Part shown: positions 1-39,300 of the stretch, in pieces
Numbering within the stretch: the stretch's first letter is position 1
Layout of the letters: every line of letters begins with the position of its first letter
IMG/VR virus record: IMGVR_UViG_2718218452_000013
Source: a virus
Taxonomy: Duplodnaviria > Heunggongvirae > Uroviricota > Caudoviricetes
DNA length: 46,500 nt
Strand: one strand, 5' to 3'
Translations under genes and position numbers: made by a program
The notes under the pieces: model-generated
Told to the model about the DNA's origin: nothing
The model's database searches: none
What the model saw: the letters and a program-made list of their open reading frames with translations, nothing else

Positions 1-97
1 AAATAATCTCGGTGTGAGATTCCTTACGTTTTCCAAGCCCCCCTTCCTAGCCTTAAATGGAAAGATACTTCTAATTATAGAATTTATATATCTTACC

Positions 98-673
98 CTA
101 CGGTAGGGCTGGCCATTCAATATCCGGTGCAGTTGATGTATCAACACGGTTCAGCAACACCCGATACTTTTTCCAGGCTTCCAGCAACAAGGTTTCTTCC
201 TCCGTTGCGATCTCCAGATCCACAGCATCCTGAAGCGGCGCAATATGCTCACTGGCTACCTGCATCAGGCTGTTTTTTGTTTCTTCCGCCTCCCGGATCC
301 GGAACAGTTTTTCTGCTTCCGTATCCTTCACCCAGGCTGTGCCGTTCCACTTCTGATATTCCCCTCCCGGCGATAACCAGGTAACATTTTCCGGTAACGG
401 ACCGAGTTCAGAAATAAATAACGCGTCGCCGGAAGCCACGTCATAAACCGTTTTACCCCGATGATCTTCAACGAGATGCCACGATGCCTCATCACTGTTG
501 AAAACAGCCACGAAGCCTGCCGGAATATCTGGCGGTGCAATATCGATACTGTTTGCTGGCAGACCTGTATGAGGCGGAATATATGCGTCACCTTCACCAA
601 TAAATTCATTAGTTCCTGCCAGCAGATTATAAATTTTTATGGTCCGTGGTTGTTCACTCATTCTGAATGCCAT
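98..673 (-). CDS. tfa: tail fiber assembly protein Tfa
   Basis: 191-aa ORF beginning [18 protein letters not shown], recalled as lambda Tfa; start overlaps the stf stop codon. Confidence 0.85.
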
Positions 674-3593
674 TATGCAAGCCTCACAATGTAGTTAAAT
701 GCGATGTTTTTGACAGTGTTTTCCGCGTTACCAGCAGCGTTAACGGTGATGGTGTGTCCATGTGAGCCAATCGCAACAGAGTGCGTATGAGCACCAATAC
801 CGACAGTATGTGCGTGAGCACCTGCAGATGCAGCTGTGCCGCTGACACTATGAGTGTGCGCTCCTGCAGCACTTGTATTCACACTGGCCGCAGACACTAC
901 CTTATGTACTGACCCATTTTGTGACCACTGGCTGACTGCTGATGCGCCTGTGACACTATGAGTATGGTTTCCGGCACTTGCGGCTGTACCGCTCACACTG
1001 TGCGTATGCGCCCCGGTGTTATTCGTGGATTTAGTGCCGTAATCAAACGACGATGTGGTTTTCGTCCCCAAATCCGTACTGGATGCACTGGCGCTGTGGG
1101 TGTGCGATTTAATGCCGTCCTGTTCCTGAGACAATACGGCCCGACCACTGGCAGGTTTGCCCTTAATCGTCCAGCCACGCATATCAGGGATCACGCCTGA
1201 CGGATAAGCGGTTGCAAGTTTCGGGTAAGCGGATTTGTCAAAAGTCTGCCCCTGCATCAGGGCATAACCAGACGGAACGGTATCTGATGGCCACGGGATT
1301 GGTGCGCCAGGCGGATAAAACTGCTCTGATGGTGTATAGAGTGAATAAACTGTACCGTCCGTTAACCCTTCCGGCTTATTAGCAGAATATGCTGGTGACG
1401 TATGAATAGTCACGCTGGCATTACTGGTATAATCCCATTGAATATTTACACCAGTCGCATAATTTCCGATTGCAACGTAAATATCGTAAGTATCACCAGA
1501 TGTATTGACCCAGGCAAAATTTGTAAACCCTGTCGATGTGCGCTGCCATAAAGCACCAGTAATCCCCTTCGGATTACCATTACCTGCACGCAAAACAAGT
1601 TCAGATATACCTGCCTGTTGAGGTGACCCCACGTTAAATCCCGCGCCACCAATCAACGTAATTGAAACAACAGAACTCGCCTGTGGCATGGTTACCGTTG
1701 CTAATTTGAACCAACCAGCACCACCGCTGAATGACATTGTTGTTGAGTTAAGCGTACCAATATCTTTCGGCGTCAGTGTTATATCCGCTGAAAGCGCCTT
1801 ACCATTCACCTTACGGGCAGAAGGTACCCGACCATTCGCATTATCATTAGCTGCTTTCACTGCTTTCGGTGTCGCGGCAAGCGTTTCAGATGCGCTGTTG
1901 GTTGCACTACTGAGCTGGACAATTCCTTTTTGTGCTGTCGTAGCGTCCTGAGCAGTATATTTCCCGTTAGCAAGGTCATAGGCTGCCTTTACCGACTTTG
2001 GCGTTGCCGCCAGCATTTCAGATGTGCTGTTGGTCGCGCTGCTGAGCTGAACTATCCCTTTCTGTGCTGTCGTTGCATCCTGTGCGGTGTATTTCCCGTT
2101 AGCCAGCTCATACGCGGCCTTAACGGCTTTTGGCGTTGCCGCCAGTGACTCGGAAGTGCTGTTAGTCGCACTGCTGAGCTGTACTATCCCCTTTTTCGTC
2201 GTGCTCGCATCCTCAAGCGCCACGGCGGATGCAATATCCTCTGCCCGTTTTGCCGCTGTCTCGGCGCGCGTTGCCGCGGATTCCGCCGTACTTTTGCTCT
2301 GAGCTGCCGCCGTCGCACTGCCAGCTGCCTCTGTCGCCTTCGTGGATGCCGTCGTGGCGCTGCCCTTTGCTGCTGACGCCTGTCTGGTCGCCTCATCTTT
2401 TGAAGCAGACGCAGATGATGCCGATGACGCCGCCGAACTGGCGGACGATGCGGCAGCCGTTTTTGAGGATTCTGCGCTGGTTTCCGACGCTTTCGCGTTC
2501 GTCTCGGATGTCTTCGCTGCGGAAGCAGACCTCGCTGCTGCGCTGGCCTGTTCAGTGGCTTCGCCAGCCTTCGTTGTGGCTGTTGAAGCGGACGATGCGG
2601 CGCTTTCTGCCGATTTTCCGGCAGCGGTGGCACTGGCTGAGGCCTGCCCGGCACTTGTTGACGCGGCACTGGCAGACGACGCAGCCGCTGTTTTTGAGCC
2701 TGCCGCAGCTGAGGCGCTCTGTCCCGCTGCCGTCTCAGAAGACCTGGCGTTCGTCTCGGACGTTTTTGCCGCCTTCGCGGAATTTGCTGCCGCCGTTGCC
2801 GAGGAAGCTGCGCTACTGGCGCTCGAGGATGCGTTCGTTTCTGATGATTTTGCCGCCTCTTTTGAAGCCGACGCATCCCGGGCTGAGGTGGCAGCTTCTG
2901 ACGCTTTCGTGGTCGCGGTGGATGCAGAAGTGGCGGCTGATTGTTGTGACGCTGCAGCATTCGTTCTGACGTTTTCGCGGCAGCGGCACTGGTAGCTGCC
3001 GCGCTTTTTGAGGACTCTGCAGCGGCAGCACTTTTTTCCGCTTCAGTGGCCTTTGTTGATGCCGTTCCTGCGCTGGAAGACGCTGACTGAGCCGACGAAG
3101 CGGCCTGTCCGGCTGACGTGCTGGCTGCACGTGCTGAATCTGCAGCATCAGTCGCATGGGTTGCCGCCTCACGGGCAGATGTGCCGGCATCACTGGCTGA
3201 CTTCTTCGCGGCTGCCGTGTTCTGTGCCACCACGGACGCGTTACGCGCCACCTCTTCCACCATCTGTTCAAAACGGCGCAGTGCCTCCGGACGGGCATCA
3301 TCCTCCGTCATGGCACCGAGAAAATCATTCAGCGTACCCGGCTGAGAATCTTCATACACGGTGATGGTCCCGGCATGTGACGGCGGGAATCCTTCCACCA
3401 ACAGAATAACGCTGTACTGACCGTACTCAACGTCCATGCTGTAACGCCCGGCTTCATCCGGATTTTCTGAGGCCAGCGTGTTCACCACCACCGTGGTGCT
3501 GTTACGTTTTGCTTTCAGCTGGATTGTGCAGTTCTGTACCGGTTTTCCTGTGCCGTCTTTCAGTACACCTGAAATCTTTACTGCCATATTCAC
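673..3593 (-). pseudogene. stf: side tail fiber Stf, reading frame broken by a 1-nt frameshift near 2963-2966
   Basis: N-terminal about 205 codons (MAVKISGVLKDGTGKPVQNC..., lambda Stf-like) run from 3593 in one frame; the Ala/Ser/Thr-rich repeat region and C-terminal His-rich (GAHTHS) fibre tip continue to 673 in another frame. Hand translation shows ...AAAAKTSE then a shift at plus-strand gttc (TT where TTT would keep frame). Confidence 0.65.
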
Positions 3594-3596
3594 CCC

Positions 3597-3625
3597 ACAA
3601 AAAAGCCCGCCTGAACCGGCGGGCT
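3597..3625 (-). terminator. rho-independent terminator downstream of lom
   Basis: minus-strand hairpin agcccgcc/ggcgggct followed by a U-run. Confidence 0.5.
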
Positions 3626-3651
3626 GTCATAACACTGTGTTACCTGGCTAA

Positions 3652-4251
3652 TCAGAACTTATAACCGACACCCACGATGAAACCGTCAGTGCGCCAGTCG
3701 CCACTGCCGGAGCCTTCATAAGCAATATCAATGGCCACGGATTCGGTCGGGTTAAACTGCACGCCAGCTCCCCACGCCAGAGACGTGTTGCTGTGGCGAC
3801 CGTCATCACTTCCGGTCAGCACGTCGTGCGTTTTCCCCTTGTTGTCAGTTACGCGGAGATAATCCCCGGAGAAAGTCGACACACGGCTGTAAGCCATACC
3901 CGCCATCGCATACGCGCTGAACCATTCATTCACGCGCACAGACGGCCCCACCATCACGCTGAACCAGCGGTTACGCACGGAATCTTCATGCCAGCGGGTA
4001 TCGCTGTAACGGGTAAGCTGGCGATTCTTGTCTCCTGCATAGCTGAACGACGTCACCATCCCCAGTGTGTCCGTAAACTCATAACGGTATTTCACGTTAA
4101 TCCCGTTCAGTTCATCGCTGCCAGGAACGTTCGTCGAGACATGAAGATACCCCGCGCTCAGCGTGGACTGATGTTCAGACGCCCATGCAGGCGCACCGGA
4201 TACGGCCAGACAAATGGCTGCGGACAAAATGGCGGCATAAAGTTTACGCAT
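3652..4251 (-). CDS. lom: outer membrane protein Lom (Ail/OmpX family moron)
   Basis: 199-aa ORF with signal peptide [24 protein letters not shown] and beta-barrel-like body, recalled as lambda Lom. Confidence 0.9.
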
Positions 4252-4274
4252 AATTACCTCTCGCTTTTCTGCAA

Positions 4275-4299
4275 TAAAAAAGGCGCCATTTCTGGCGCC
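4275..4299 (-). terminator. rho-independent terminator between J and lom
   Basis: minus-strand hairpin ggcgcc-agaaat-ggcgcc followed by a U-run, immediately upstream of the lom RBS. Confidence 0.5.
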
Positions 4300-4318
4300 C
4301 GTATATGGGTTATAAAAT

Positions 4319-7300
4319 TCAGCTGATACTGATGCCTGCGGTGGCTTTCTTCATCACCACAACCAGCAAATCGCTGATACTTGCTGTGGGATACCAGTTA
4401 TTCACTAGCCATGCTGATACCGAAAACTCCAGCGTCATGTGACCGTGACCGGCAGGCATATCAATAACGCCACTGTAAATCAGCGTATTATCCAGCGCGG
4501 TACGGTTATAAATTTCAGCACCGTTTTTCCGCACTATCAGACGGCATGAGGAGTAAATATCAGTATGCTCTCTCTCATGCTTAGCGCCACTGAATGCCAC
4601 CGCCGGAATAACAATCTGCCGGTCAAACGGCTGATCGTCATAAACCCTGACGGTAATGGTCCCTGATGGCCACCGCTCCGGTGCCCGGGAGTCCCGCGGA
4701 AAAGCCTTACCCACTGTTTTGACTATATCGCCTTCAATCTGGTTGGCTGACAGTTTCCCCTTAATCTGACAGTTCTCATTAATTGTGACATTGTTGAGCG
4801 TCCCGGCGTTCGCATTCACACTGCCACTGATATCTGCATTTTTAGCGGTCAGCTTTCCGTCCGGTGTCAGGGAAAATGCCGGAGGATTACCGCCGCTGGT
4901 AATGGTGGGAGCCGTCAGGCGCTTCAGGAACACGTCGTTCATGAATATCTGGTTGCCCTGCGCCACAAACATCGGCGTTTCATTCCCGTTTGCCGGGTCA
5001 ATAAACGCGATACGATTGGCGGCAACCAGAAACTGGCTCAGTTTGCCTTCCTCCGCGTCCTCCATGCTGAGGCCAATACCCGCGACATAATGTTTGCCGT
5101 CTTTGGTCTGCTCAATTTTGACGCCCCACATGGCATTCCACTTATCGTTGGCGTCCTTCCACTCTTTCGAAAACTCCTCCAGTCTGCTGGCGTTATCCTC
5201 CGTCAGGTCGACTTTTTCCAGCAACTCCTTGCCGAGATGGGATTCGGTTATCTGGCCTTTGAAAAAATCCAGATAGCCGGATGCATCATCACTCGGCTGG
5301 CCAACAGCCTCCACAAATGCCGATTTGCCAACGGTGTTCACACTGCGGATGTAAAAATAATAATCATGGTCCGGTTTGATATTGATACTGGCGGCTATCC
5401 AGTACAGCGCCGTGCCAAGATAGCGGGCTGTGGTTTCAACCTGCCTGATATCGGTAATCCGCGTTTCCGAGAACCAGAACTCAAACTGTACCGTCGGGTC
5501 ATAAACCGCAAGATGCGGCGTGGCGGTTATCTGAAAATAGCCCGGCGTCAGCTCAATCTGTGACGGCGCTGCCGGTGCGGCAATCCTGAACGATACCGAT
5601 GCCGGATCGCCCTGCTGCCCCCACGCATTTACTGCCCGGACTGTCAGCCTGTAGTTCCCCGGCGCCAGTTGTGTGAAGCGGTATGTGGTTTCCGCCGTCC
5701 GGGCTGTGCTGACCAGCCGCTCACTGCCGTCATCCGCGGCCACGGTCAGGCGAAGCATGAAACTCACGCCCTTCACCACCTTCGGCGTATCCCAGCGGGC
5801 CAGTACCTGATACTCCCCGCTGTCTGCGGTGACTTCGGCAGTCAGGTGCTGCACTGCTGGCGGCGTGACACCATTCACCGTGCCGCTCTGGTCGCCGTCA
5901 AAGTGCGCCCCGTTATCCACGATGGCTTCTTTTTCCGGTACATGCTGCACGGCGGTGATAGCATACGTGCCGTCATCGTTCTCACGGATACTCACACAGC
6001 GGAACAGGCGCTGGCGCAACGTCGGCAACTTCAGCCCCCACACGCTGTATTCAGCAACACCGTCAGGAACACGGCTCACTTTCACCTTCACGCCGTCGGT
6101 GACGGACTGAACCTCCACGCTGATCGGATTGCCACTTCCGTCAACCAGGCTTATCAGCGTGGTACCGGAGGATGGCAGCGTGATTTCACGGTCGAGCGTC
6201 AGCGTCCGGGTCTGGCTGTTTACCGCCAGCACGCGCCCGCCGGTGCTGATACCGGCATAGTCATCATCACAGATTTCAATGACATCGCCCGGCACATGGC
6301 GAAGCCCTTCGGCACCCACGCTGAAGTCCACGGTCTGCGTTTCCAGCAGTTCTGTTTTAATCAGCCACAGCCCGGCGCGGTGTGCCTGCCCCCGGCTGGT
6401 ACAGCCAAAGGCATCCATCTTCGTGACGTTACGACCGTAACGGGCAATGGCCTGCGTGTCCTCCACAAGCTCTGTCGCCGTCTCCCAGCCGTTATTCGGG
6501 TCAATCCAGTTCACCTCAACGGCATTATGGCGGTCCTTCAGGGCGCTGAAGCTGTAGCGGAACGGCGCGCCATCATCCGGCATCACCACATTACTGCGGT
6601 TATAGGTCCACACCTTATCCGACGGTCGGTCCTGCACGAACGTCAGCGTCTGCCCGTTCCATACCGGCATACAGCGCATCGCCGAGCAGAAATCACTGAG
6701 CACATCCCACGCCTTGCGCTGTGTGGTCAGGTACGCATTACAGGTGATGCGCGGCTCCGTGCCACCAGAGCCGTCCGGCACCGACTGGTCGCAGTACTGG
6801 CCGATGACATACAGCGCCCATTTATCCACATCCGCTGCACCAAGACGTTTCCCCATGCCATAACGCGGATGGGTCAGCATATCCCACAGACACCAGGCTA
6901 TGTTGTTGCTGTATGCCGGTTTAAGCGTTCCGTCCCAGATACCGCTGTATGTGCGTTTTTCCGGGTCGTAATTCGACGGCACCTGCAGAATGCGTCCGCG
7001 CAGATGATAATTACGGCTCACCTGCTGGCTGCCGAACTGCTCCGAATCCACCTGTACGCCGACCAGTGCCGTGTTCGGGTAGCCCTGTTTCACATCGATG
7101 ATTTCGGTGTATGACGACCAGAGCGTTTTGTTCTGCAGCTGGTCTGTGGTGCTGTCCGGCGTCATTCTGCGCATCCGGATATTAAACGGGCGCGGCGGCA
7201 GGTTATCCACCACCACCGAGGCCAGATACTGCGAGGTGGTTTTGCCCTTAATGGTGATGTCTTTTTCCGTCACCCAGCCACCATTACGCTGTATCTGAAC

Positions 7301-7714
7301 CAGCAGGCGAACTTCCGACGGATTCCGGTCCCCCTTTGAGGTGGTTTCCACCAGTGCCTGCACACCGAAGGTAAAGCGCAGTCGGTCGATGTTTGCCGAC
7401 GTGATGGCGCGGGTGATCGGCGTGTCATATTTCACTTCTGTACCGAGCACCGTCTCGGAGCCGGAGGATTCAAATCCCTCCGGCGGTGTCTGCTCCTGCT
7501 CACCGGCCCGGAACACCACCGTGACGCCGGATATATTGGTATTCCCCTCACTGTCCAGCACCGGCGTACTGTTCAGCAGCACGCTTTTTAATCCATCCAC
7601 CGGACCTTCAACCGGCCCTTCGCTGATGGCATCGATCACACTCAGCAGCTGCGTGGACTTCAGGTTGTCCTTCGCTTCGCGCGGGGTATGCCCCTTACTG
7701 CTGCCTTTACCCAT
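4319..7714 (-). CDS. J: tail tip host-specificity protein J, full length, lambda-type receptor-binding C-terminus
   Basis: 1131-aa [23 protein letters not shown]... ending ...[42 protein letters not shown], recalled as lambda J. Confidence 0.95.
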
Positions 7715-7774
7715 TCCTCACGCTCCATAAACGATAAAACCGCCCGGAGGCGGTTTCACATAAAACATTTTGCA

Positions 7775-8422
7775 TCAGCGACCAATCACCACAACCTGAC
7801 CACCATCCCCTTCGTCTGCCGTGCTGATCTCCTGAGAAACCACACGTGACCCCACGCGCATTTCACCGTACAGAACAGGCAGAACATTGCCCTGGGCAAC
7901 CATGTTATCCAGTGAGGAGAAATAGGTGTTCTGTTTGCCGTTATCTGTACTGGCTGCCGTGGGCGTCCTGGCTTTCGGTGCCAGCATCTGCGCCACTCCG
8001 CCCAGGATCATACTGGCCCCTGCCGCATACATGCCCGATACAGCCGCGGCCCCCAGCCAGCCCACAGGGTTCCACCATGCCACCGCAATCAGCGCCGCCC
8101 CAAGCACCACCTGAAACACACCGCCACTTTTAGCTCCCGCCAGACGCGGCACGATGTGGATCACGGCACCATTTGCCAGCGGCTCATTAAGACGGGCAGA
8201 TAATTCATTTTCGCCTGCATCACGCCCGGCAATGCGCACCTGATACCAGCCCTCATTCAGTTTCTGACGAAACACCGGGAGCTGTGTGGCCAGTGCCCGG
8301 ATGGCTTCAGCCCCCGTTTTCACACGAAGGTCGATACGGCGACCAAATCGTTGCAAATCCCCGTAAAGGCAGATGCGTGCCATGCCCGGTGACGCCAGAG
8401 GGAGTGTGTGCGTCGCTGCCAT
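7775..8422 (-). CDS. I: tail tip assembly protein I
   Basis: 215-aa ORF MAATHTLPLASPGMARICLYGDLQRFGRRIDLRVKTG, lambda I-like; overlaps K 3' end. Confidence 0.85.
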   Translation of the reverse strand: MAATHTLPLASPGMARICLYGDLQRFGRRIDLRVKTGAEAIRALATQLPVFRQKLNEGWYQVRIAGRDAGENELSARLNEPLANGAVIHIVPRLAGAKSGGVFQVVLGAALIAVAWWNPVGWLGAAAVSGMYAAGASMILGGVAQMLAPKARTPTAASTDNGKQNTYFSSLDNMVAQGNVLPVLYGEMRVGSRVVSQEISTADEGDGGQVVVIGR

Positions 8423-9063
8423 TTGTCGGTGTACCTCTCTCGTTTACTCAGTTGTTCAGGAATATGGTGCAGCAGCTCGCCGTCGCCACAGTAAATGGCG
8501 GCATGATTCGGCACCGATGAACCAAAACAGCACAGCAGCACATCGCCCGGCTGGGCCGCTGACAACGGCACCTGATACAACCCCGTTGCCTCCATATTAT
8601 CCAGATAGAGATTCTGGCCGTGACGCCACCAGTCATCCCCGCGATGAAAATCCGGCATCTCAATTCCCGCCAGATGGTAAGCGTCCCGGAACAGCGTGTA
8701 ACAGTCCGTCACCCCGTGCTCAAAGCGCCGCCCGGTGAGATGCGGCACACAGCGGAATTTATGAATCGCCCCCCGGCAGACCAGCCACCACGGCAAATCA
8801 CTCTGCACCTGCAGCCGCCGGTCGGCCTCACTCAGCCAGGGCAGACCACCGGGGTGGCTGTGGACCAGCGCCACAATCTCTCCCTGCATTTCTGCACTCA
8901 GCCAGTCCTCCGGCGACATCCGGAAATACGCCTCCGGCTCACCAGAGATATTCACGCAGGGAAAATATCTTTCCCCCTCCGGTGTTCTCACCACGAAGCC
9001 GCACGACTCCGCTGGCGCACATCGCCGGGCGTGCGCCAGAATCGCTGATTCTGTCTCTGTCAT
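8320..9063 (-). CDS. K: tail tip assembly protein K
   Basis: ORF with ATG at 9063 (MTETESAILAHARRCAPAESCGF...), HSHP metal motif and Cys/His peptidase-like C-terminus, lambda K-like by position and sequence. Confidence 0.8.
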   Translation of the reverse strand: MTETESAILAHARRCAPAESCGFVVRTPEGERYFPCVNISGEPEAYFRMSPEDWLSAEMQGEIVALVHSHPGGLPWLSEADRRLQVQSDLPWWLVCRGAIHKFRCVPHLTGRRFEHGVTDCYTLFRDAYHLAGIEMPDFHRGDDWWRHGQNLYLDNMEATGLYQVPLSAAQPGDVLLCCFGSSVPNHAAIYCGDGELLHHIPEQLSKRERYTDKWQRRTHSLWRHRAWHASAFTGICNDLVAVSTFV

Positions 9064-9068
9064 GGGAT

Positions 9069-9767
9069 TCACTGCGAAAGTTTGTTAATGGAAAGGAAGC
9101 CGCCAAAGTTGCCGACGTTATTGCGAAACTTACAGCCGCTCAGGCATTTGCTGCATTTATCCTTCGTGATATCGGACGTCGGCTGATCATATTCATCCGC
9201 GACCGCCGGACCGTGATAACCGCACTCGTCACCGCGATAGGTCCAGGTGCAGGTGTTGGCCAGCATGATGCGCCCCGGAAAAACGGCACCGTCCGTTTCC
9301 GTCGGCGTGGACAGTACAAAAGAGGCACTCACCGCGCTCAGTTCGCTGCACTGCTCGATGCGCCAGCGGCTGATCACCTCCTGCTCCGGATCGGCGTAAC
9401 TGTTTCCGTTGACGAAGTTCACCGCATCCAGAAAACGGGCGTAAACCTTACGCCGGACCACCGTTCCGCCGACCAGACTCTGCATATCTTCCGCCATCCC
9501 GGTGACCATACCGTACAGGTTAGAAACCGTCAGCGTGGGGCGCGTACTGGTGCCTTTGCCATTCAGTTCAAAACCGCTCCCCTGAATGGGATACGGCTGA
9601 TACTGTCGCCCCTGCCAGGTGACCGGCTCACCTTTTTCGTTCTGCTCATTACAGAAAAAATAACGTTCTCCACCGACCTCTGTCAGGTCGATTTCCCAGA
9701 GCACCACGCTGGCCGACTGCTCCGCACGGGTGCATTCATTCAGTGTTTCCTGCCGGATATCCTGCAT
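9069..9767 (-). CDS. L: tail tip protein L
   Basis: 232-aa ORF MQDIRQETLNECTRAEQSASVVLWEIDLTEVGGERYFF, lambda L-like. Confidence 0.9.
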   Translation of the reverse strand: MQDIRQETLNECTRAEQSASVVLWEIDLTEVGGERYFFCNEQNEKGEPVTWQGRQYQPYPIQGSGFELNGKGTSTRPTLTVSNLYGMVTGMAEDMQSLVGGTVVRRKVYARFLDAVNFVNGNSYADPEQEVISRWRIEQCSELSAVSASFVLSTPTETDGAVFPGRIMLANTCTWTYRGDECGYHGPAVADEYDQPTSDITKDKCSKCLSGCKFRNNVGNFGGFLSINKLSQ

Positions 9768-10095
9768 CAGTTCACCACCTGTTCAAACTCTGCGCTGAAC
9801 TCAACACGCAGCATACTGACCCGCGACGACCATTTTGCGCAGGTCACCTTTATCTGCCGCCACTCATAAGGCGGCGTCCACAGAAAGGCTTTCCAGCCCC
9901 CGTGCTCTTCCAGAAACGACTCCAGTACCGTGGCCTCCTCACGGGGGACAGAAAGCGTCACGCTGTACGTTTTCAGGTTGGCATTCAGCCCGGCAGGCGC
10001 TCGCTGAACAGCCATCACCAAAGCGCACCTTTCTTACAGAAGGGGCCGAAGCCACATCCATACCGGGTTTCACTTTCCAGCGGAAGGTTTTCATC
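9767..10095 (-). pseudogene. M: tail tip protein M, frameshifted
   Basis: ATG at 10095 encodes MKTFRWKVKPGMDVASAPSVRKVRFGDG then leaves frame and hits a stop after about 51 codons; the remaining M sequence (QRAPAGLNANLKTYSVTLSV...EFEQVVN) is in a different frame (ORF 9767..10021). Confidence 0.6.
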
Positions 10096-11317
10096 GTCCA
10101 CCTCCGGAGAACAGACCACCATCACGCATCTGCCCGGTCACAACATCCATTGCCGCCTTACGGGCTACGTCATAAACAGCCTTCAGCGCCTGTGGCCCTA
10201 TCTGACCGTTCGTGCCGTCGTTGTTAATCACCACATGGTTATTCTGCTCAAACGTCCCGGACGCCTGCGACCGACTGTCCGCCATGCTGCCCGGTGTACC
10301 GACATAACCGCCGGTGGCATAGCCGCGCATCAGCCGGTAAAGATTCCCCACGCCAATCCGGCTGGTTGCCTCCTTCGTGAAGACAAACTCACCACGGTGA
10401 ACAATCCCCGCTGGCTCATATTTGCCGCCGGTTCCCGTAAATCCTCCGGTTGCAAAATGGAATTTCGCCGCAGCGGCCTGAATGGCTGTACCGCCTGACG
10501 CGGATGCGCCGCCACCAACAGCCCCGCCAATGGCGCTGCCGATACTCCCGACAATCCCCACCATTGCCTGCTTAAGCAGAATTTCTGTCATCATGGACAG
10601 CACGGAACGGGTGAAGCTGCGCCAGTTCTGCTCACTGCCGGTCAGCATCGCCGCCATATTCTGTGCAATACCATCAAAGGTCTGCGTGGCTGCACTTTTT
10701 ACCTGCGACATACTGTCCGTGGCGCTCTCTTCCCACTCACTCCAGCCGGACTTCAGGCCTGCCATCCAGTTCCCGCGAAGCTGGTCTTCAGCCGCCCAGG
10801 TCTTTTTCTGCTCTGACATGACGTTATTCAGCGCCAGCGGATTATCGCCATACTGTTCCTTCAGGCGCTGTTCCGTGGCTTCCCGTTCTGCCTGCCGGTC
10901 AGTCAGCCCCCGGCTTTTCGCATCAATGGCGGCCCGTTTTGCCCGTTGCTGCTGTGCGAATTTATCCGCCTGCTGCGCCAGCGCGTTCAGGCGCTCCTGA
11001 TACGTAACCTTGTCGCCAAGTGCAGCCAGCTGGCGTTTGTACTCCAGCGTCTCATCTTTATGCGCCAGCAGGGATTTCTCCTGTGCAGACAGCTGGCGAC
11101 GTTGCGCCGCCTCCTCCAGTACCGCGAACTGACTCTCCGCCTTCCACAAATCCCGGCGCTGCTGGCTGATTTTCTCATTTGCTCCGGCATGCTTCTCCAG
11201 CGTCCGGAGTTCTGCCTGAAGCGTCAGCAGGGCAGCATGAGCACTGTCTTCCTGACGATCGCCCGCAGACACCTTCACGCCGGACTGTTTCGGCTTTTTC
11301 AGCGTCGCTTCATAATG

Positions 11318-19015
<7,698 letters not shown>

Positions 19016-19034
<19 letters not shown>

Positions 19035-19438
19035 TTTCCCGCAGAAACAGGCTCTGCGGGCCCGGCGTCCTCTGTCTGTTCAGGGGCATTATTCACCACA
19101 AACTCATACATACCAGACAGCCGGTACACCACGTTTTCAGCATGAGAAATTGCCTCCGTGGGCCAGGTGGTAAGCACTTCCTGCTCAATCTGTTTAACGG
19201 CTTCATTCATGGACGGCATCTGCGTCTTCTGCGGATGGTTATGCCACAGGGACATCGCCACCAGAAACGCGCCGGTTCTGATGGCGTCTTCCACAGTAAA
19301 CTTCCGGTTGCTGTCTGACTCCGCCTGTTCTGCCTGCCGTTTCATCAGGGCGAGATGCTCAATGCGCTGCAGGGCTGACAGTTCAGAAAGCGTGACGGTC
19401 ACACCGTTATGTTCAAATGATTCGGTTTTCAGGAACAT
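19016..19438 (-). CDS. G: tail assembly chaperone G
   Basis: 140-aa ORF MFLKTESFEHNGVTVTLSELSALQRIEHLALMKRQ... ending SAGKCSTVS. Confidence 0.9.
19034..19040 (-). promoter_or_regulatory. programmed -1 ribosomal frameshift slippery heptamer G GGA AAG for the G-T fusion
   Basis: minus-strand GGGAAAG in the G frame (gcg GGA AAG tgt) 7 codons before the G stop, exactly where the T frame opens. Confidence 0.75.
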
Positions 19439-19453
19439 CGCTGACTCTCCGGA

Positions 19454-20194
19454 TTAACTGGCGGTGACGGTAATTTCTGCAACCGCAGCAAACTCACCAT
19501 TACCGGATACAACCGGAATGTTGACCTTGCCTGCAGCAACGCCGTTCACGGTGATGGTCATACCACTGACCGACACGGTGGCTTTTGTTTTATCCGCAGA
19601 CACCGCACGAAAGCTCTTGTCGGTTACGCCCTCCGGCTGGAAGGCCACGGTCAGCGTGGTGCTCTGCCCTTTCACCACCGAGGTGCTGGAAGGCGTCACG
19701 GTCATGCCGGTTGCCGCTGTTACCGTGCTGCGATCTTCTGCCATCGACGGACGTCCCACATTGGTGACTTTCACCGTGCGGGTGATCACTTCCTTCGCCG
19801 TCACCGCCTTACCGATACTGCTGACCCAGCCACGGAACACATCGACCGTGCCGTTCGGGAAGCGGATTTTATAGGCACGGGTATCGCCTTCATTAAACCA
19901 CGCCAGCAGCGCCTGCTGCCCCTGCTCTCCGGGCATCCACGCCAGCGTGAAGCTGGTATCTCCGGCAGATTTCTGCCCCTGCCCGGTCGCAGTCCAGTCT
20001 GCATCTTCATCATCGAGATAGCTGTCGTCATAGGACTCAGCGGTCAGTTCGCCGGGCGTCAGGTCTTTAACTTTTGCCAGACGCGACCAGTCAACGTCTG
20101 AAAGCGGATTCGCATAAGGGTCACCGCTCCCCTTATAAACCCACAGGGTGGTCCCGGCACCTTTCACCGGCATTGTAGGATTTGGTACAGGCAT
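19454..20194 (-). CDS. V: major tail tube protein V
   Basis: [39 protein letters not shown]..., 246 aa from this Met; lambda V-like. Confidence 0.9.
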
Positions 20195-20201
20195 AGCGTC
20201 C

Positions 20202-20597
20202 TCACATTTCATAGGTAATGACATAAGTCAGATCGGCTGAACTCCACAGGCCCGCATCATCGTCGCGCCGGTAGTCATAGCCACTGGCCACCATACTGGT
20301 GATCAAATCTGACAGTGCCGGGATATCGCTCATCACCGGATAAATCCGGGACTCCATCCACGCATCCAGCTCTGAATCCGGCACCTGAGCAGGCAGGAAA
20401 ACTTCGATATGCAGCTCCGCCTGCCAGGTATCGCTGTCCAGCTCTTCGCCCGTGTATTCAGCGCCGGTGAGATAAACGGCAACTGCCGGAAAATCCGCCT
20501 CATCAAAAACAGCGGGGCGACCATCAAAAAACGTCGCCCCGGTGTCATGCTTCTCCAGTGCATCCAGTACGGCTGCACGGAGTTCAGTATGTTTCAT
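20202..20597 (-). CDS. U: tail tube terminator protein U
   Basis: 131-aa [34 protein letters not shown], lambda U-like. Confidence 0.9.
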
Positions 20598-21172
20598 CGC
20601 TTTATTACCATCCTCAGTTGATGCTGCAGCGCATAGCCCAGCTCTTTCGGAAGACGTTCACGCCGTATCCGCTCAATATTTTGTTTAAACGCCGTGGTCA
20701 GCGGCACCGCCATCGGGATTTTCACCACATCAATGGGGTAACGGTTTTTCCCGGCCACACGCTGCATGACATGCCACCGGCCATTTTTCAGTTGCTGAAT
20801 AAACGCGCCGGGAATACGACGGTTACCCACCACAAGCACGCTGCCGCCACCTTTCAGGGATGAACGCTGCCCCTTTTTACGACGCCTGCGGCGCGAAAGG
20901 ACAACCCGCGCATTACCCAGCTTGATTACGGGCAAATCCCCCCGGTTAACTTTGATTCTGGCCTGCGGATTTTTGACCGTGGCCCTTTTCAGCCTGGCCC
21001 TTTCCTTTACCAGTTTCCGGCGTACCTTTGTCTCACGGGCAACCTGTGACGCCGACTGCGATATCGCGGATGAAGCAACGCGGTTAATGGCCATTGCGGC
21101 GGCACCAGGCACCGCCGTTTTGCTGATACGGCTGAGGTTTTCAACGGCCTGCTCAAGACCTTTTATGGCCAT
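20594..21172 (-). CDS. Z: tail completion protein Z
   Basis: 192-aa ORF MAIKGLEQAVENLSRISKTAVPGAAAMAINRV, lambda Z-like. Confidence 0.9.
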   Translation of the reverse strand: MAIKGLEQAVENLSRISKTAVPGAAAMAINRVASSAISQSASQVARETKVRRKLVKERARLKRATVKNPQARIKVNRGDLPVIKLGNARVVLSRRRRRKKGQRSSLKGGGSVLVVGNRRIPGAFIQQLKNGRWHVMQRVAGKNRYPIDVVKIPMAVPLTTAFKQNIERIRRERLPKELGYALQHQLRMVIKR

Positions 21173-21183
21173 ACATCCCCCTT

Positions 21184-21537
21184 TCAGCGGCGACGGTTAA
21201 CGGCAGGCGGTACGCCCCGTCCAAGCCAGAGATGACAACTTCCGCCATCATCCGGCGAAACCCGATCTACCCAGAAATTTTCCTCACCGATGGTCAGCGT
21301 GTCTCCACGCCGCAGCTGCCGCACCTCATCAGTCCGGACAAACAGGGACGGGCTGGAGCCTTCAACGCGCACGCCCTGTCCGGCATAGCTGATATTTTCA
21401 GGGTCATCAAAAACACCACGTATCACCGCACCTGACTGCTCACCGGATGTAATGGTGGCTGACGTTCCCATGTACCCGCGTATCGTTTCATCGGCGCGGG
21501 CAATGGCAGCATCGAACAGGTTATCGAAATCAGCCAC
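21184..21537 (-). CDS. FII: head-tail joining protein FII
   Basis: 117-aa ORF MADFDNLFDAAIARADETIRGYMGTSATITSGEQ, lambda FII-like. Confidence 0.9.
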   Translation of the reverse strand: MADFDNLFDAAIARADETIRGYMGTSATITSGEQSGAVIRGVFDDPENISYAGQGVRVEGSSPSLFVRTDEVRQLRRGDTLTIGEENFWVDRVSPDDGGSCHLWLGRGVPPAVNRRR

Positions 21538-21548
21538 AGCGCCTCCCG

Positions 21549-21947
21549 TTATTGCATTCTGGCCAGGCCGCGCTCTGTCATTTCGGCTGCCACACCGGCA
21601 GAGACACGAAACGCCGTTCCCGGCAGCACAAATGCCACAGGTTCATCCCGCGTGGCGTGAAGTGCATCAGTATGCAGCTTCACCAGTGCCACGACCGTGA
21701 CCAGTTCAGACGTATCCAGAATCACGGTATCCGGCTGCGCTGATCCCACCTCATTTTCATGTCCGGTCAGCACATTTTCCCGGCTGAGAGGGGTGTCCTG
21801 ACCGGCAGTTTCATCCGTGTCATCAAGCTCCTCTTCCAGCTCTGCCACACGGAGCGCCAGTTCTTCTTTCGTCCCCGTCAGGCTGACATCACGGTTCAGT
21901 TGTTCACCCAGCGAGCGGAGACGGGCAATCAGTTCATCTTTCGTCAT
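21549..21947 (-). CDS. FI: DNA packaging protein FI
   Basis: MTKDELIARLRSLGEQLNRDVSLTGTKEELALRVAELEEELDD..., 132 aa from this Met. Confidence 0.85.
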   Translation of the reverse strand: MTKDELIARLRSLGEQLNRDVSLTGTKEELALRVAELEEELDDTDETAGQDTPLSRENVLTGHENEVGSAQPDTVILDTSELVTVVALVKLHTDALHATRDEPVAFVLPGTAFRVSAGVAAEMTERGLARMQ

Positions 21948-21988
21948 GGACTCCTCCACAGAGAAACAATGGCCCCGAAGGGCCATGA

Positions 21989-23014
21989 TTACGCCAGTTG
22001 TACGGACACGAACTCATCAGGGTCAGCCAGCAGCATCAGCGGTGCTGACTGAATCATGGTGAACTCACGCGCCGGATCGCCGGTGGTCACCCAGTTTTTC
22101 GGGTAACGGGCAGAGGCGTTAATGCCTTCGCGCTGTGCGTCCGCATCCTGAATGCAGCCATAGGTGCGCAGACCGCGTGCCTGAGTGTTCCCCAGCACCA
22201 TCGTGTTGTCCGGCAGGAAGTTCTTTTTGACGCCGTTTTCCACGTACTGTCCGGAATACACGACGATGGCCACATCGCCATACATCCCCTTATAGGACAC
22301 CGCTTTACCTAGGTCTTTCACCGCTGTCTCCAGCTCGGAATTAGAGCCACGACGGGTATCCAGCTTCTCCTTGACGGCTTTGAAGGAACGGAACAGCGCC
22401 CAGCCTTTCGGATCGAACACGATGATATTCACCACACCGCTGGCGTTCAGCGCGTAGGCTTCGATATCGTCGGTCGGGTCATACGTGGACTTGTCACGCT
22501 TGCTCCACTCCGTGCCGCCGGACTGCGTGATGTTATTCTCCTCACTGCGGCCCATATCCACCTCAACCGGATCGAAGGCTTCACCGGTCATGGTGTATTT
22601 GCCCTTAAGCACGGCAGAAACTGCCTGCATCTCTTCGACCTGAGCAATGGCCAGCTCTTCGTCACGCATGTTCTGCATGATGATGCGACGGCGGCGGTAA
22701 GCCGGGTCCGCCAGATTCTGCGGATCTTCATCCGGCAGGCGACGCAGGGTCATCTGCGGATTCACTTCATGCTTCGGCTTGACATATCCCGGCGTAAATT
22801 CAGAGGTGGAGCCGCCACGGGAACGGATAACCTCACCGGAAACAATCGGCGAAACGTACAGCGCCATGTTTACCAGTCCCGGAATTTGTGAGAGATAGAC
22901 TTTCTCCGTGGTGAAGGGATAGCTCTCACGGAAAAAGAGACGCAGAAACAGCGGATCAAACTTAAATTTCTGCTCATTTGCCGCCAGCAGTTGGGCGGTT
23001 GTGTACATCGACAT
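21989..23014 (-). CDS. E: major capsid protein E
   Basis: MSMYTTAQLLAANEQKFKFDPLFLRLFFRESYPFTTEKVY..., 341 aa from this Met; lambda E-like. Confidence 0.9.
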   Translation of the reverse strand: MSMYTTAQLLAANEQKFKFDPLFLRLFFRESYPFTTEKVYLSQIPGLVNMALYVSPIVSGEVIRSRGGSTSEFTPGYVKPKHEVNPQMTLRRLPDEDPQNLADPAYRRRRIIMQNMRDEELAIAQVEEMQAVSAVLKGKYTMTGEAFDPVEVDMGRSEENNITQSGGTEWSKRDKSTYDPTDDIEAYALNASGVVNIIVFDPKGWALFRSFKAVKEKLDTRRGSNSELETAVKDLGKAVSYKGMYGDVAIVVYSGQYVENGVKKNFLPDNTMVLGNTQARGLRTYGCIQDADAQREGINASARYPKNWVTTGDPAREFTMIQSAPLMLLADPDEFVSVQLA

Positions 23015-23069
23015 AAAAAAATCCCGTAAAAAAAGCCGCACAGGCGGCCTTTAGTGATGAAGGGTAAAG

Positions 23070-23402
23070 TTAAACGATGCTGATTGCCGTTCCGGCAAAC
23101 GCGGTCCGTTTTTTCGTCTCGTCGCTGGCAGCCTCCGGCCAGAGCACATCCTCATAACGGAACGTGCCGGACTTGTAGAACGTCAGCGTGGTGCTGGTCT
23201 GGTCAGCAGCAACCGCAAGAATGCCAACGGCAGCACCGTCGGTGGTGCCATCCCACGCAACCAGCTTACGGCTGGAGGTGTCCAGCATCAGCGGGGTCAT
23301 TGCAGGCGCTTTCGCACTCAATCCGCCGGGCGCGGTTGCGGTATGAGCCGGGTCACTGTTGCCCTGCGGCTGGTAATGGGTAAAGGTTTCTTTGCTCGTC
23401 AT
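23070..23402 (-). CDS. D: capsid decoration protein D
   Basis: [40 protein letters not shown]..., 110 aa. Confidence 0.9.
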
Positions 23403-23411
23403 AAACATCCC

Positions 23412-24017
23412 TTACACTGGTGTGTTCAGCAAATCGTTAACGGCATCAGATGCCGGGTTACCTGCAGCCAGCGGTGCCGGTGCCCCCTGCATCAGACGAT
23501 CCAGCGCAGTGTCACTGCGCGCCTGTGCACTCTGTGGTGCTGCGGCCAGAATGCGGCGGGCCGTTTTCACGGTCATACCGGGGGTTTCTGCCAGCACGCG
23601 TGCCTGTTCTTCGCGTCCGTGAGCCTCCTCACAGTTGAGGATCCCCATAATGCGGCTGTTTTCTGCCGCAACCGCTGCGGTGATCTGCGCGTTCACGTCC
23701 GGCTGCGCCGCGCTGGCGTTCTCGCCCTCCGTCGCTGGCCCCACGTCAGTAACGTCAGCCTGCGAAGCAGTGGCTGAAACAGTTGTTGATTGAGTCTCTT
23801 TGGTCATTCGCCCTCCTGAGAGACGGGATTTACGTGCATCCAGTGCATCACGCATGACGGTGATCGCATCGGTGCTGTTAACAAGTTCATCAGCCAGTCC
23901 GGCATCAATGGCCTCCTGACCGCTGTACACTGCAGCCTCGGTATCCAGCACAGCCTGCACGGACAGGCCGGTATATGCCGACACCTTCTGCGCAAACATC
24001 CGGCGGGTTGCGTCCAT
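23412..24017 (-). CDS. Nu3: capsid scaffolding protein Nu3 (internal in-frame start within C)
   Basis: in-frame ATG at 24017 (MDATRRMFAQKVSAYTGLSV...) sharing the C-terminal frame with C, as in lambda. Confidence 0.5.
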   Translation of the reverse strand: MDATRRMFAQKVSAYTGLSVQAVLDTEAAVYSGQEAIDAGLADELVNSTDAITVMRDALDARKSRLSGGRMTKETQSTTVSATASQADVTDVGPATEGENASAAQPDVNAQITAAVAAENSRIMGILNCEEAHGREEQARVLAETPGMTVKTARRILAAAPQSAQARSDTALDRLMQGAPAPLAAGNPASDAVNDLLNTPV

Positions 24018-24711
24018 CCGGGACTGCAGTGTCTCCCGGACGTCATCCGGAAGATGGCTGTAGGGGTTGCCATCCACCTTATGGCTGCCGCTGTAAATCA
24101 GCGTGATTTCCACACCCTGTTTCTCCAGCGCAGCACCGTAATTACTGTGAGCCATCATGACGCCGATGGAGCCTGTCCGGGCGGTCTGCGTGACCAGACG
24201 CCGGGAGGCGGCACTGGCAAGCAACTGACCTGCACTGCAGTTCATGTCGTTGGCAAGCGCCCATACCGGTTTTATGTCACGCACACGGGCGATGATGTCA
24301 GCGCAGTCAAATGCCCCCGCCACCATCCCGCCGGGCGTGTCCATATCGAGCAGAATGCCGTCCACCATCGGATCGCTGGCAGCCTGTTGCAGACGGGCGA
24401 TAATGCCGTTGTAACCGGTCATCCCCGAGTACGGCTGCAGCGCCCGCGTCCGGCTGACCAGCGTGCCGGACACCGGCAGCACGGCGATGCCGTTCATGAC
24501 CTGATAACTGCGGGCCTGTCGTGGTCCGTCATCATCACCGGATAATGCCAGCGTCGCGAGTGCCTCCTGGGCAGTCAGGCTGTCGCCGGACACCGCATCC
24601 GTCAGGCGGCTGATCCCAAGCTGGCCTGCAAGCGCACAAAAGAAAACCCGCGCATAGGCGGGTTCAAGCATCAGCGGCTCATTAAAGGCCATGCTGGCAA
24701 TATGCGGGAGA

Positions 24712-24731
<20 letters not shown>
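23412..24731 (-). CDS. C: capsid assembly protease C
   Basis: ORF containing VTAELRNLPHIASMAFNEPLMLEPAYARVFF... (GTG start as in lambda C, 439 aa); S49/ClpP-like body. Confidence 0.85.
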
Positions 24732-28412
<3,681 letters not shown>

Positions 28413-28438
<26 letters not shown>

Positions 28439-28958
28439 TCAGCAACCCCGGTATCAGTTCATCCAGCGCGGCTGCTTTGTTCATGGCTTTGATGATATCC
28501 CGTTTCAGGAAATCAACATGTCGGTTTTCCAGTTCCGGAAAACGCCGCTGCACCGACAGGGGGAGCCCGTCGAGAATACTGGCAATTTCACCTGCGATCC
28601 GCGACAACACGAAAGTACAGAATGCGGTTTCCACCACTTCAGCGGAGTCTCTGGCATTCTTCAGTTCCTGTGCGTCGGCCTGCGCACGCGTAAGTCGATG
28701 GCGTTCGTACTCAATAGTTCCTGGCTGGAGATCTGCCTCGCTGGCCTGCCGCAGTTCTTCAACCTCCCGGCGCAGCTTTTCGTTCTCAATTTCAGCATCC
28801 CTTTCGGCATACCATTTTATGACGGCGGCAGAGTCATAAAGCACCTCATTACCCTTGCCACCGCCTCGCAGAACGGGCATTCCCTGTTCCTGCCAGTTCT
28901 GAATGGTACGGATACTCGCACCGAAAATGTCAGCCAGCTGCTTTTTGTTGACTTCCAT
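28413..28958 (-). CDS. Nu1: terminase small subunit Nu1
   Basis: 181-aa ORF MEVNKKQLADIFGASIRTIQNWQEQGMPVLRGGGKGNEVLYDSAAVIKWYAERDAE..., recalled as matching lambda Nu1. Confidence 0.95.
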
Positions 28959-29048
28959 TGTTCATTCCACGGCCAAAAACAGAGAAAGGAAACGACAAAG
29001 GCCCAAAAGTTCGTTTTCAGCACCTGTCGTTTCCTTTCTTTTCAGGGG

Positions 29049-29200
29049 GTATTTTAAATAAAAACATTAAGTTACGACGAAGAAGAACGGAAACGCCTTA
29101 AACCGGAAAATTTTCATAAATAGCGAAAACCCGCGAGGTCGCCGCCCCGTAACCTGTCGGATCGCCGGAAAGGACCCGCAAAATGATAATAATTATCATC
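29049..29200 (-). other. cos: cos site (cosB-cosN-cosQ); cosN 12-nt cohesive end at 29136..29147
   Basis: plus-strand ...ccgcgaggtcgccgccccgtaacctgtcgg... is the reverse complement of the lambda cohesive-end junction CGACAGGTTACG|GGGCGGCGACCTCGCGGG; about 190 bp upstream of the Nu1 start. Confidence 0.85.
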
Positions 29201-29346
29201 TACATGTCACAACGTGCATCTACGCCATCAAACCACGTCAAATAATCAATTATGACGCAGGTATCGTATTAATTGATCCGCATCAACTTAACGTAAAAAC
29301 AACTTCAGACAATACAAATCAGCGACACTGAATACGGGGCAACCTC

Positions 29347-29541
29347 ATGTCAACGAAGAACAGAACCCGCAGAACAACAACCCGCAACATCCGCTTTCCT
29401 AACCAAATGATTGAACAAATTAACATCGCTCTTGATCAAAAAGGGTCCGGGAATTTCTCAGCCTGGGTCATTGAAGCCTGCCGTCGGAGGCTAACGTCAG
29501 AAAAGATAGCATATACATCAATTAAAAGTGATGAAGAATGA
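29347..29541 (+). CDS. small phage protein, DLP12 YlcI-like
   Basis: 64-aa ORF MSTKNRTRRTTTRNIRFPNQMIEQINIALDQKGSGNFSAWVIEACRRRL; position next to cos as in DLP12 and the lambda right end. Confidence 0.6.
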   Translation: MSTKNRTRRTTTRNIRFPNQMIEQINIALDQKGSGNFSAWVIEACRRRLTSEKIAYTSIKSDEE

Positions 29542-29705
29542 ACATCCCGCGTTCTTCCCTCCGAACAGGACGATATTGTAAATTCACTTAATTACGAGGG
29601 CATTGCAGTAATTGAGTTGCAGTTTTACCACTTTCCTGACAGTGACAGACTGCGTGTTGGCTCTGTCACAGGTTAAGTAGTTTGAATGATTAGCAGTTAT
29701 GGTGA

Positions 29706-29912
29706 TCAGTCAACCACCAGGGAATAATCCTTCATATTATTATCGTGCTTCACCAACGCTGCCTCAATTGCCCTGAATGCTTCCAGAGACACCTTATGTT
29801 CTATACATGCAATTACAACATCAGGGTAACTCATAGAAATGGTGCTATTAAGCATATTTTTTACACGAATCAGATCCACGGAGGGATCATCAGCAGATTG
29901 TTCTTTATTCAT
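29706..29912 (-). CDS. small phage protein, DLP12 YbcW-like
   Basis: 68-aa [43 protein letters not shown]. Confidence 0.6.
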
Positions 29913-31192: not shown

Positions 31193-31223
31193 TTGCATGA
31201 GTTGCCCATCGATATGGTCAGCT

Positions 31224-34245: not shown

Positions 34246-34269
34246 AACTTTCAGTAAACAATTGGCATA

Positions 34270-34653: not shown

Positions 34654-34670
34654 TAACTTTCTCCACAAAA

Positions 34671-37859: not shown

Positions 37860-38353
37860 TAAGCCCCCACGTAATTCCCTGACAGATACCACTCTTCACC
37901 CGATGCAGCGCGCTTGCTGCTTTTCCGTAAGCACCGCTCACGACGCGCCAGAAAATTGTTTCGTTCTGGCTGGGAGTGGCTTTCACGGAATGCCGCCATC
38001 CACACCGTTGCAGCACGACGGTATAAGCCCCTGGACTCCAGTTCTTCAGCCTGGCGGGTCAGGCACAAAATCACCCGTGGATCGTTAGTGCCGACATAGA
38101 AATTGCGCACAGGTCTGGTTTCTCGAACTGGTTGTGGTTCCGGTTCCTGCGCTCTCTCAGTCAGGCGCGGGAAATGTCTGCGTGTATCTCCTTCACAACG
38201 GTGAGCCACACGCCCACTCTGACGTAACTTGCTTGCTGACTGCAGAACGCGCTGCCGTGAGTAACCTGCAAAAGCATCCGCAATGTCTCCGGAAGTACAT
38301 CCCGGATGGGCTTCAATGAATTTCTGAACTTCATTCAAAAGACTCATGATCAC
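37859..38353 (-). CDS. putative transcriptional regulator with PerC-like C-terminal region
   Basis: 164-aa ORF; C-terminal ...AEELESRGLYRRAATVWMAAFRESHSQPERNNFLARRERCL resembles the PerC/Pch motif; assignment by motif only. Confidence 0.45.
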   Translation of the reverse strand: MIMSLLNEVQKFIEAHPGCTSGDIADAFAGYSRQRVLQSASKLRQSGRVAHRCEGDTRRHFPRLTERAQEPEPQPVRETRPVRNFYVGTNDPRVILCLTRQAEELESRGLYRRAATVWMAAFRESHSQPERNNFLARRERCLRKSSKRAASGEEWYLSGNYVGA

Positions 38354-39265
38354 CCCCTGAATCCTGCCGGGATCTGGCTGTAGTCCACGTTGTCGTAACT
38401 GGATTTGAAGTACGGGTCTTCGCGTTTTTCGGTGTACGTGCTGACGGACGGTGATAAGCGCAGGGAAAGCTCATCCCATTTTTCCCGCAACTTCGACGGG
38501 CTGAGCACGTTACGGCACCAGAACGGATCGCGGCTGACGCGGCTGTACATCTCGCAGATTTGTTTGTGAGTACGACCATCCTGCACACACATCAGGCGAA
38601 TTTCGTTTGCCCAGGCTGTCCAGTTCGGTTCTTTGGGACGAACCACCTCGCCGTCACATTCGGCGGCTTGCTCGTACAGGGCGATGATTTTTTTCCAGAG
38701 CCACTGTGCGCAGGTCAAATCATCCTGCGTTCCCCACTGGCGCTTTTTAGGGCTGAATACAACCGCATCAGGATGGCGAGTTAAAAAATCCTGTTCATCC
38801 GTCTGCGTGTCCGGTTGCGAAGCGTCCGGACGAGAAGGTTTTTTATCTGACGGATCATGTTTTGATTTTACTGACGGATCCCCGCCAGATTCTGACGGGT
38901 GAAAACCCGCTTTTTTGCCAGATTTCGACGCATCAAATTTTGACGGGTCAGATTTTGATGCGTCAGATTTTGACGGGTCAGAATCTGACAGTTGAGAAAA
39001 TGCCGCTGCCTGGAAGCTTCGCAACGTTAAGCTGATAAACATTCGACGCATTGCGGTTACCCTGGCGACGCGCCTTACGCGTTAACCAGCCTTCTGCTTC
39101 CAGCCGTGCGATAGCCGTCCTGACGGTACTCATCCCCGCGCCAATCTGACAGGCAATGGTTTCAATTGATGGCCAGCACACACCTTCGTCATTACTGAAA
39201 TCAGCCAGGCGGGCCATAATTGCCACGCTGGATAATTCATGCCTGATGCAGCGCAACCATCCCAT
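38350..39265 (-). pseudogene. replication initiator O-like protein, split between two frames near the iteron array
   Basis: N-terminal HTH ORF (38978..39265; ...RLEAEGWLTRKARRQGNRNASNVYQLNV) and C-terminal ORF (38350..39051) overlap in different frames; the iteron-encoded SKSD repeats fall at the junction; plus-strand A4 run at 38997..39000 is the likely frameshift site. Confidence 0.6.
38840..38992. repeat. replication origin iterons (about 6 direct repeats of a 16-17-bp unit, consensus tcAGATTTTGACGgg) inside the O-like gene
   Basis: direct repeats ccagattctgacggg / cagatttcgacgcatc / caaattttgacgggtc / cagattttgatgcgtc / cagattttgacgggtc / cagaatctgacag. Confidence 0.75.
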
Positions 39266-39300
39266 ACATAGCCGGTTAATTTAGTGCTCATGACCGACCT

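Follow-up and report, generated by a model that had tools for sequence, protein, structure and literature searches.

A private 2-nt deletion frameshifts gene M in the sequence of a lambda-like prophage: defective element or consensus error

The window, i.e. the whole 46,500-nt stretch of DNA that was analysed, holds a lambda-like prophage encoded on the minus strand, which extends from the terminase genes at about 28.9 kb down to a tail-fibre assembly gene at about 0.1 kb. The right end carries the integrase gene intD, and the prophage occupies the intD (DLP12) attachment site; prophages of this kind at that site are common in O103:H2, O45:H2 and O121 strains. Its nearest relative over most of the element is the prophage of Escherichia coli strain C7; in the early region it is O103:H2 strain 12009, and where the allele of the C-terminal part of J is concerned, 13E0767. 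The gene order H-M-L-K-I-J is the same as in lambda and 434, and the order around M also matches C7 and RM14721. Gene M is located between the tape-measure gene H and the tail-tip gene L, and its start and stop codons overlap the stop of H and the start of L, respectively. The features of this locus are as follows.

9767..10094, minus strand: gene M, homologue of lambda gpM (distal tail protein), with a disrupted reading frame; 328 nt instead of 330, from the alignment to the M genes of lambda, 434 and C7
9939..10094, minus strand: ORF 1, 51 codons, MKTFRWKVKPGMDVASAPSVRKVRFGDGCSASACRAECQPENVQRDAFCPP, i.e. M residues 1-30 and 21 out-of-frame residues, then a stop
9767..10021, minus strand: ORF 2, 84 codons from a TTG, i.e. 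5 out-of-frame residues followed by M residues 31-109 (QRAPAGLNANLK...EFEQVVN)
9069..9767, minus strand: gene L (tail tip), intact, 100% identical to C7 and called minor tail protein L in relatives

No single ORF of about 109 codons spans the whole M domain in the window; the domain is shared between two ORFs in different frames. This is the arrangement that had been described in the original prediction, with the start of M in one frame and the remainder in another, and the peptides reported there agree with ours. The start codon is indeed an ATG, although it lies at 10094-10092 and not at 10095, a shift of one position. It overlaps the stop codon of H as ATGA (10091-10094). At the other end, the stop codon shared by M and ORF 2 overlaps the start codon of L as TGATG (9765-9769), an overlap through which L is normally translationally coupled to M. 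ORF 2 has two alternative start codons, a GTG at 10018 and an ATG at 10015.

We then located the lesion by a four-way alignment of the M genes of the window, lambda (NC_001416 13100-13429), 434 and E. coli C7. A single 2-nt gap was found at columns 89-90 of M, i.e. at 10006/10007 on the minus strand, where relatives read TGTTCCCAGCG and the window reads TGTTCAGCG. This position falls inside the range (10005..10015) in which a small indel had been predicted, and the alignment to lambda M DNA bears out the net loss of 2 nt relative to lambda that had been proposed. In a global alignment of positions 9700-10200 with phage 434, 501 of 503 positions are identical and the 2-nt gap is the sole difference. 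Gap aside, these 501 nt around M are identical both to phage 434 and to the C7 prophage, and across 7055-11316 the deletion is the sole small difference from C7. The deletion can be read as the loss of CC from a CCC run or, equally, as the loss of a TC unit from the TCTC of a lambda-type allele. The deleted bases include the site at which 434-type (TTCCCAG) and lambda-type (TTCTCAG) alleles differ. Being determined by the sequence itself, the frameshift raises no question of chance.

The protein family gives the same picture. When CC is restored, the repaired M of 109 amino acids matches the Pfam family PF05939 (Phage_min_tail) from end to end (129 bits, profile positions 1-108 of 108; gathering cut-off, 39 bits). 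ORF 1 matches only profile positions 1-28, with 25.3 bits and therefore below the cut-off, while ORF 2 matches positions 30-108 with 90.8 bits, above it. The match thus splits cleanly at profile position 29 between the two fragments, which indicates a clean frameshift and not divergence. In addition, the repaired M is identical to lambda gpM (PDB 8iyk chain M) at 106 of 109 residues. Lambda gpM is present in five PDB entries (8iyk, 8iyl, 8k35, 8xcg and 9e7m), with six chains in each.

We searched for the deletion in related sequences. M-like sequence is present in 3746 of 5426 complete E. coli genomes, where a single genome may have as many as seven copies, and 93 phage records also contain it; the best matches all span 503 nt and therefore correspond to the intact form. 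For the lesions themselves, we used a composite probe made of four 49-50-mers, covering the M deletion and three junctions in gene H (described below), with a 28-nt megablast word forced across each lesion. None of the 5426 complete E. coli genomes contained the M deletion or any of the three H junctions, compared with 1832 of the 5426 for the intact-allele control. Exact 49-mer and 22-mer sequences over the deletion were also absent from the species-representative genomes and from the IMG/VR viral contigs. A single metagenome match to the 22-mer was found in any collection (L007 1657-1679, contig Ga0187808_10051680); we rejected it as a shared allele, as it is a 23-nt coincidence in unrelated GC-rich DNA. 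Moreover, by exact look-up among about 15 billion proteins, we found neither the M fragments of 51, 82, 83 and 84 amino acids nor a 472-amino-acid Lom::H fusion, while the repaired M occurs verbatim on at least 1000 contigs in the same protein collection. The genome of origin therefore seems to be missing from the collections searched, and no second sequence of its strain turned up. The original prediction had asked whether related prophages share the indel, and none does in the E. coli genome, viral, metagenome or protein collections. An indel shared by relatives is therefore rejected. The deletion is private to this sequence, being absent, the chance match aside, from genomes, viral contigs, metagenomes and proteins.

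The rest of the element was compared with its nearest public relatives. Against the C7 prophage (NZ_CP010240.1), ungapped blocks show 0 mismatches in 32,063 nt, and the M deletion is the sole small difference within them.

1-4047; 7055-10006; 10007-11316; 11317-14607; 14608-17331; 17332-35070: blocks with zero mismatches to C7

Over the 46.5 kb of the window, we counted 0 private substitutions, 3 private small indels and 3 private junctions. Each patch of substitutions relative to C7 or to O103:H2 12009 is an allele that is 100% identical or intact in other E. coli. The segment 4048-7054 comprises the start of lom and the C-terminal, receptor-binding portion of the resident J; its identity is 100% with 13E0767 and about 95% with C7, and its flanks are those of C7. 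It is an ordinary homologous mosaic exchange that brought in a natural allele. The side-tail-fibre gene (673-3593, minus strand) consists of two overlapping ORFs, 2184..3593 and 673..2223; C7 has an identical split gene, which its annotation gives as frameshifted, and the gene of O103:H2 strain 129 is intact. At 35071-35540, 470 nt of a DUF968 gene are present in the window and in O103:H2 12009 and deleted in C7, so that the window is at this place more intact than its nearest relative.

Gene H is interrupted, as listed below. This rearrangement of H, J and lom lies outside the interval covered by the original prediction and is a more unusual feature than the M frameshift.

14867..18607, minus strand: chimeric ORF H(1-426)::J(312-1132), an in-frame fusion
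10091..11509, minus strand: chimeric ORF Lom(1-64)::H(447-853), in which the C-terminal part of H is cut off from its N-terminal part
11317..17331, minus strand: insertion of about 6 kb in H, consisting of two C7-type J'-lom' fragments and replacing 58-60 nt of H
11317-14607, minus strand: J'-lom' fragment, from C7 J codon 123 to lom codon 65
14608-17331, minus strand: J'-lom' fragment, from C7 J codon 312 to lom codon 65

The order in the interrupted gene is H 1-426, J from 312, lom 1-64, J from 123, lom 1-64 and H from 447. A third fusion ORF, Lom(1-64)::J(123-1132), lies in the middle, and H lacks residues 427-446. The two inserts show 0 mismatches to C7, and self-BLAST finds positions 11316-14040 equal to 14607-17331, with 100% identity over 2725 nt. 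The three junctions (11316/11317, 14607/14608 and 17329-17332) are illegitimate, with 0-2 nt of microhomology, the junction at 11316/11317 having none. The same lom base (a G at C7 coordinate 17818, a C7-specific SNP) ends two of them, at window positions 11317 and 14608. The shared breakpoint being a C7-specific SNP, the inserts were not copied from the resident lom. Each of the three fusions keeps the reading frame, every breakpoint lying after codon position 1, for which chance gives about 1 in 27.

The insert in H is the C7-type version of roughly the segment displaced at 4048-7054, and the lom ends of the resident J/lom allele swap and of the C7-type inserts are 11 nt apart. The true boundary of the allele exchange may be anywhere further left, where the two alleles are identical; we therefore do not press the link between the allele swap and the inserts.

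Two further private indels were found in the replication region.

38350..39291, minus strand: replication-region helix-turn-helix gene, 313 amino acids in strain 12009, with two private 1-nt indels

One of them is a -1 indel at about 39236 (GATAATTTCATG in relatives, GATAATTCATG in the window) and the other a +1 indel at about 39012 (GCCTGAAG in relatives, GCCTGGAAG in the window). They are 225 nt apart, and the stretch between them is out of frame and contains stops. Neither indel was present in any of the 2001 genomes that carry the gene, the best match being 98.9% identical. Between the two indels, the SNPs at 39151 and 39158 match a second prophage of C7. As sequenced, more than one essential phage gene is thus disrupted, the genes concerned being M, H, the replication-region gene and stf.

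The effect that the deletion should have on gpM can be deduced from the structure of the lambda tail. [quoted passage not shown] At its N-terminus, residues K2 and W6 make resolved contacts (PMC10721106, PMC12617516). The 2-bp deletion after codon 30 shifts the frame, and translation from the normal ATG ends after 51 codons. An M cut at residue 30, or a fragment lacking residues 1-30, should neither fold nor form the ring. In addition, the stop of ORF 1 falls about 170 nt before gene L, and such an early stop should weaken translational coupling into L. The prophage would be unable to build its own tails, and particles would need both M and H from a co-resident lambdoid prophage. With M-like sequence present up to seven times per genome, such a supply of M in trans is plausible. 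As sequenced, M would be a null allele. The original prediction, which called M necessary for tail tip assembly, had it frameshifted by a net 2-nt deletion and left the choice between inactivation and sequencing error; both halves of this statement stand.

On the first and most likely reading, the lesion is real and reflects the recent, unselected decay of a prophage that no longer builds its own tails. Judged from sequence comparison, the chances of this are about equal either way. For the lesion being real by any route, a figure that includes the small share given below to a single template-switching episode, they are even or marginally better. In favour of a real lesion, the deletion is the only small difference in the zero-mismatch alignment to C7 and the only one relative to 434, and all 137 homopolymer runs of at least 5 nt (33 of at least 6 nt) in the C7-identical blocks are intact. 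Therefore, the consensus is accurate and the indels do not resemble classic miscalls in homopolymers, for which the loss of 2 nt from a run of only 3 would also be atypical. The clean Pfam split at position 29, in a single-domain hexameric protein whose 109 residues are all ordered, is consistent with inactivation, as is the plausible supply of M in trans. The element also carries further disruptive lesions, namely the H rearrangement, the replication-gene indels and the stf frameshift that it has in common with C7, and the non-homologous junctions in H do not resemble the products of repeat-driven misassembly. Frameshifts, deletions and trans-complementation are routine in the lambdoid prophages of EHEC (PMC2669165).

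The composition of the private changes argues against decay, however, as all of them are indels or junctions. Substitutions outnumber indels roughly 10 to 1 in mutation-accumulation experiments with E. coli, so three small indels without a single substitution are unexpected for neutral decay. Moreover, the sites of the M deletion and of the -1 indel are both variable among paralogous prophage copies, and the SNPs between the two 1-nt indels agree with a paralogue; a consensus contaminated by paralogue reads would be expected to show this pattern. The deletion occurs in no independent sequence, so that a second observation of it is lacking. If real, the decay would be very recent, since no private substitution is present in the rest of the element.

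The second reading is an error of consensus, assembly or polishing, in which the true M is intact (TGTTCCCAGCG) and reads of paralogous lambdoid prophages of the same genome were mixed. We rate this a serious possibility, falling a little short of an even chance. It extends to the two 1-nt indels of the replication gene and possibly to the H/J/lom chimera. The first argument for it is that the private changes in 46.5 kb amount to three junctions and three small indels, without any substitution. The M deletion removes precisely the base that separates 434-type from lambda-type alleles, paralogues also differ (T vs C) at the base affected by the -1 indel, and a second C7 prophage has the SNPs seen at 39151 and 39158. 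M, H, J, lom and the replication gene are all multi-copy in related genomes, and no lesion was found in the other sequences searched. The window also contains the 2.7-kb exact repeat; a short-read assembler would not be expected to span it, so that a long-read or hybrid assembly is the probable source of the window. The restriction of the small changes to indels, some of them at paralogue-variable sites, makes a consensus or polishing error almost as likely as a defective prophage.

Against such an error, 32 kb are equal to C7 with the 137 homopolymer runs of at least 5 nt intact, and the indels lie in runs of only 3, 3 and 1 nt. A classic homopolymer sequencing error is therefore not supported (137 of 137 such runs in 32 kb are intact), and the loss of 2 nt would be unusual for a read-level error. 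The H structure is a further difficulty. Given its non-homologous junctions, it is unlikely to have originated by repeat-driven misassembly. Such junctions are not something that an assembly graph creates, and chimeric reads used as a backbone would be needed; a backbone of this kind may underlie the H structure.

A third reading would unite the lesions. The M frameshift, the replication-gene indels and the triplicated J'-lom' structure in H would all come from one mutagenic repair or replication episode, which we consider improbable. Break-induced or recombination-dependent replication might have run off a fixed DNA end in lom, then switched template from H to J', from lom' to J' and from lom' to H, and left frameshifts along the copied tract. 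The use of one lom base (C7 17818) as the donor end of two junctions fits such a course, as do the 0-2 nt of microhomology and the inserts that are 100% C7-type, whereas the C-terminal part of the resident J is the other natural allele. Break-induced replication is frameshift-prone, and the private variants are indels only. However, the replication-gene indels are about 21-29 kb away from the H junctions and M, no sequence evidence times the events together, and three in-frame junctions (about 1 in 27 by chance) are not predicted. The same data also fit an artefact. If true, this episode would be a natural bacterial case of clustered indels with a microhomology-mediated complex rearrangement.

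Finally, it is very unlikely that M is still made, either by programmed +1 or -2 frameshifting at the deletion or by an internal start of the 84-codon ORF that would give a functional shortened M. An AGGUG Shine-Dalgarno-like motif is present 4-10 nt upstream of the TTG, GTG and ATG codons at 10021-10013, ORF 2 alone scores above the Pfam cut-off (90.8 bits), and the G/T genes of the same tail operon are annotated as using programmed frameshifting. The AGGUG motif is, however, ordinary coding sequence in all intact alleles, and residues 1-30 belong to the single beta-sandwich and include K2 and W6 with their contacts (PMC10721106, PMC12617516). The motif could allow some internal initiation, but its product, as read from the ORF, would lack part of the only domain. 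Read directly, GGC UGU UCA GCG AGC contains neither an X XXY YYZ heptamer nor a +1 motif of the stop or rare-codon type. There is no sign of a stimulatory RNA structure either: the folding energy of positions 9925-10030 (106 nt) is -36.5 kcal/mol, and shuffled sequences average -36.3 (z = -0.05). Nor is a two-frame arrangement of M conserved: it was found in 0 of 5426 E. coli genomes, in 0 species-representative genomes and in 0 viral sequences, with one chance match in a metagenome. Programmed frameshifting or reinitiation is rejected, as slippery site, RNA structure and conservation are all missing.

The two leading readings have different consequences. If the lesion is real, M, H and the replication-region gene should be annotated as pseudogenes and the prophage could not build its own tails; it would spread only with the help of co-resident lambdoid prophages, which is already documented for EHEC (PMC2669165). 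If it is an artefact, the assembly would be unreliable wherever paralogous prophage sequence occurs, and pseudogene counts and prophage-completeness calls would be affected. The M frameshift by itself matters little beyond annotation.

Compared with known systems, the broken M is of a known kind and not new biology: it is either an assembly error or a pseudogene of a prophage with multiple defects. With lambda gpM and 434 M it shares the place of the gene, the ATGA and TGATG overlaps and, gap aside, the DNA of 434 M, but the frame is here broken after codon 30 and the domain is in no single ORF. The split side-tail-fibre gene parallels the stf frameshift of laboratory lambda. Lambda G/GT offers a frameshift between two overlapping frames in the same operon, although it uses a -1 shift where M would need +1 or -2, and unlike G/GT the M site has neither slippery site nor stimulatory RNA structure nor conservation. 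The defective lambdoid prophages of EHEC and STEC (e.g. the Sp prophages of O157 Sakai, PMC2669165) resemble this element in their frameshifts in morphogenesis genes, in their rearrangements and in the presence of co-resident paralogous prophages that could complement them. What sets this copy apart from those prophages is that its M deletion, its interrupted H and the indels of its replication gene are all private.
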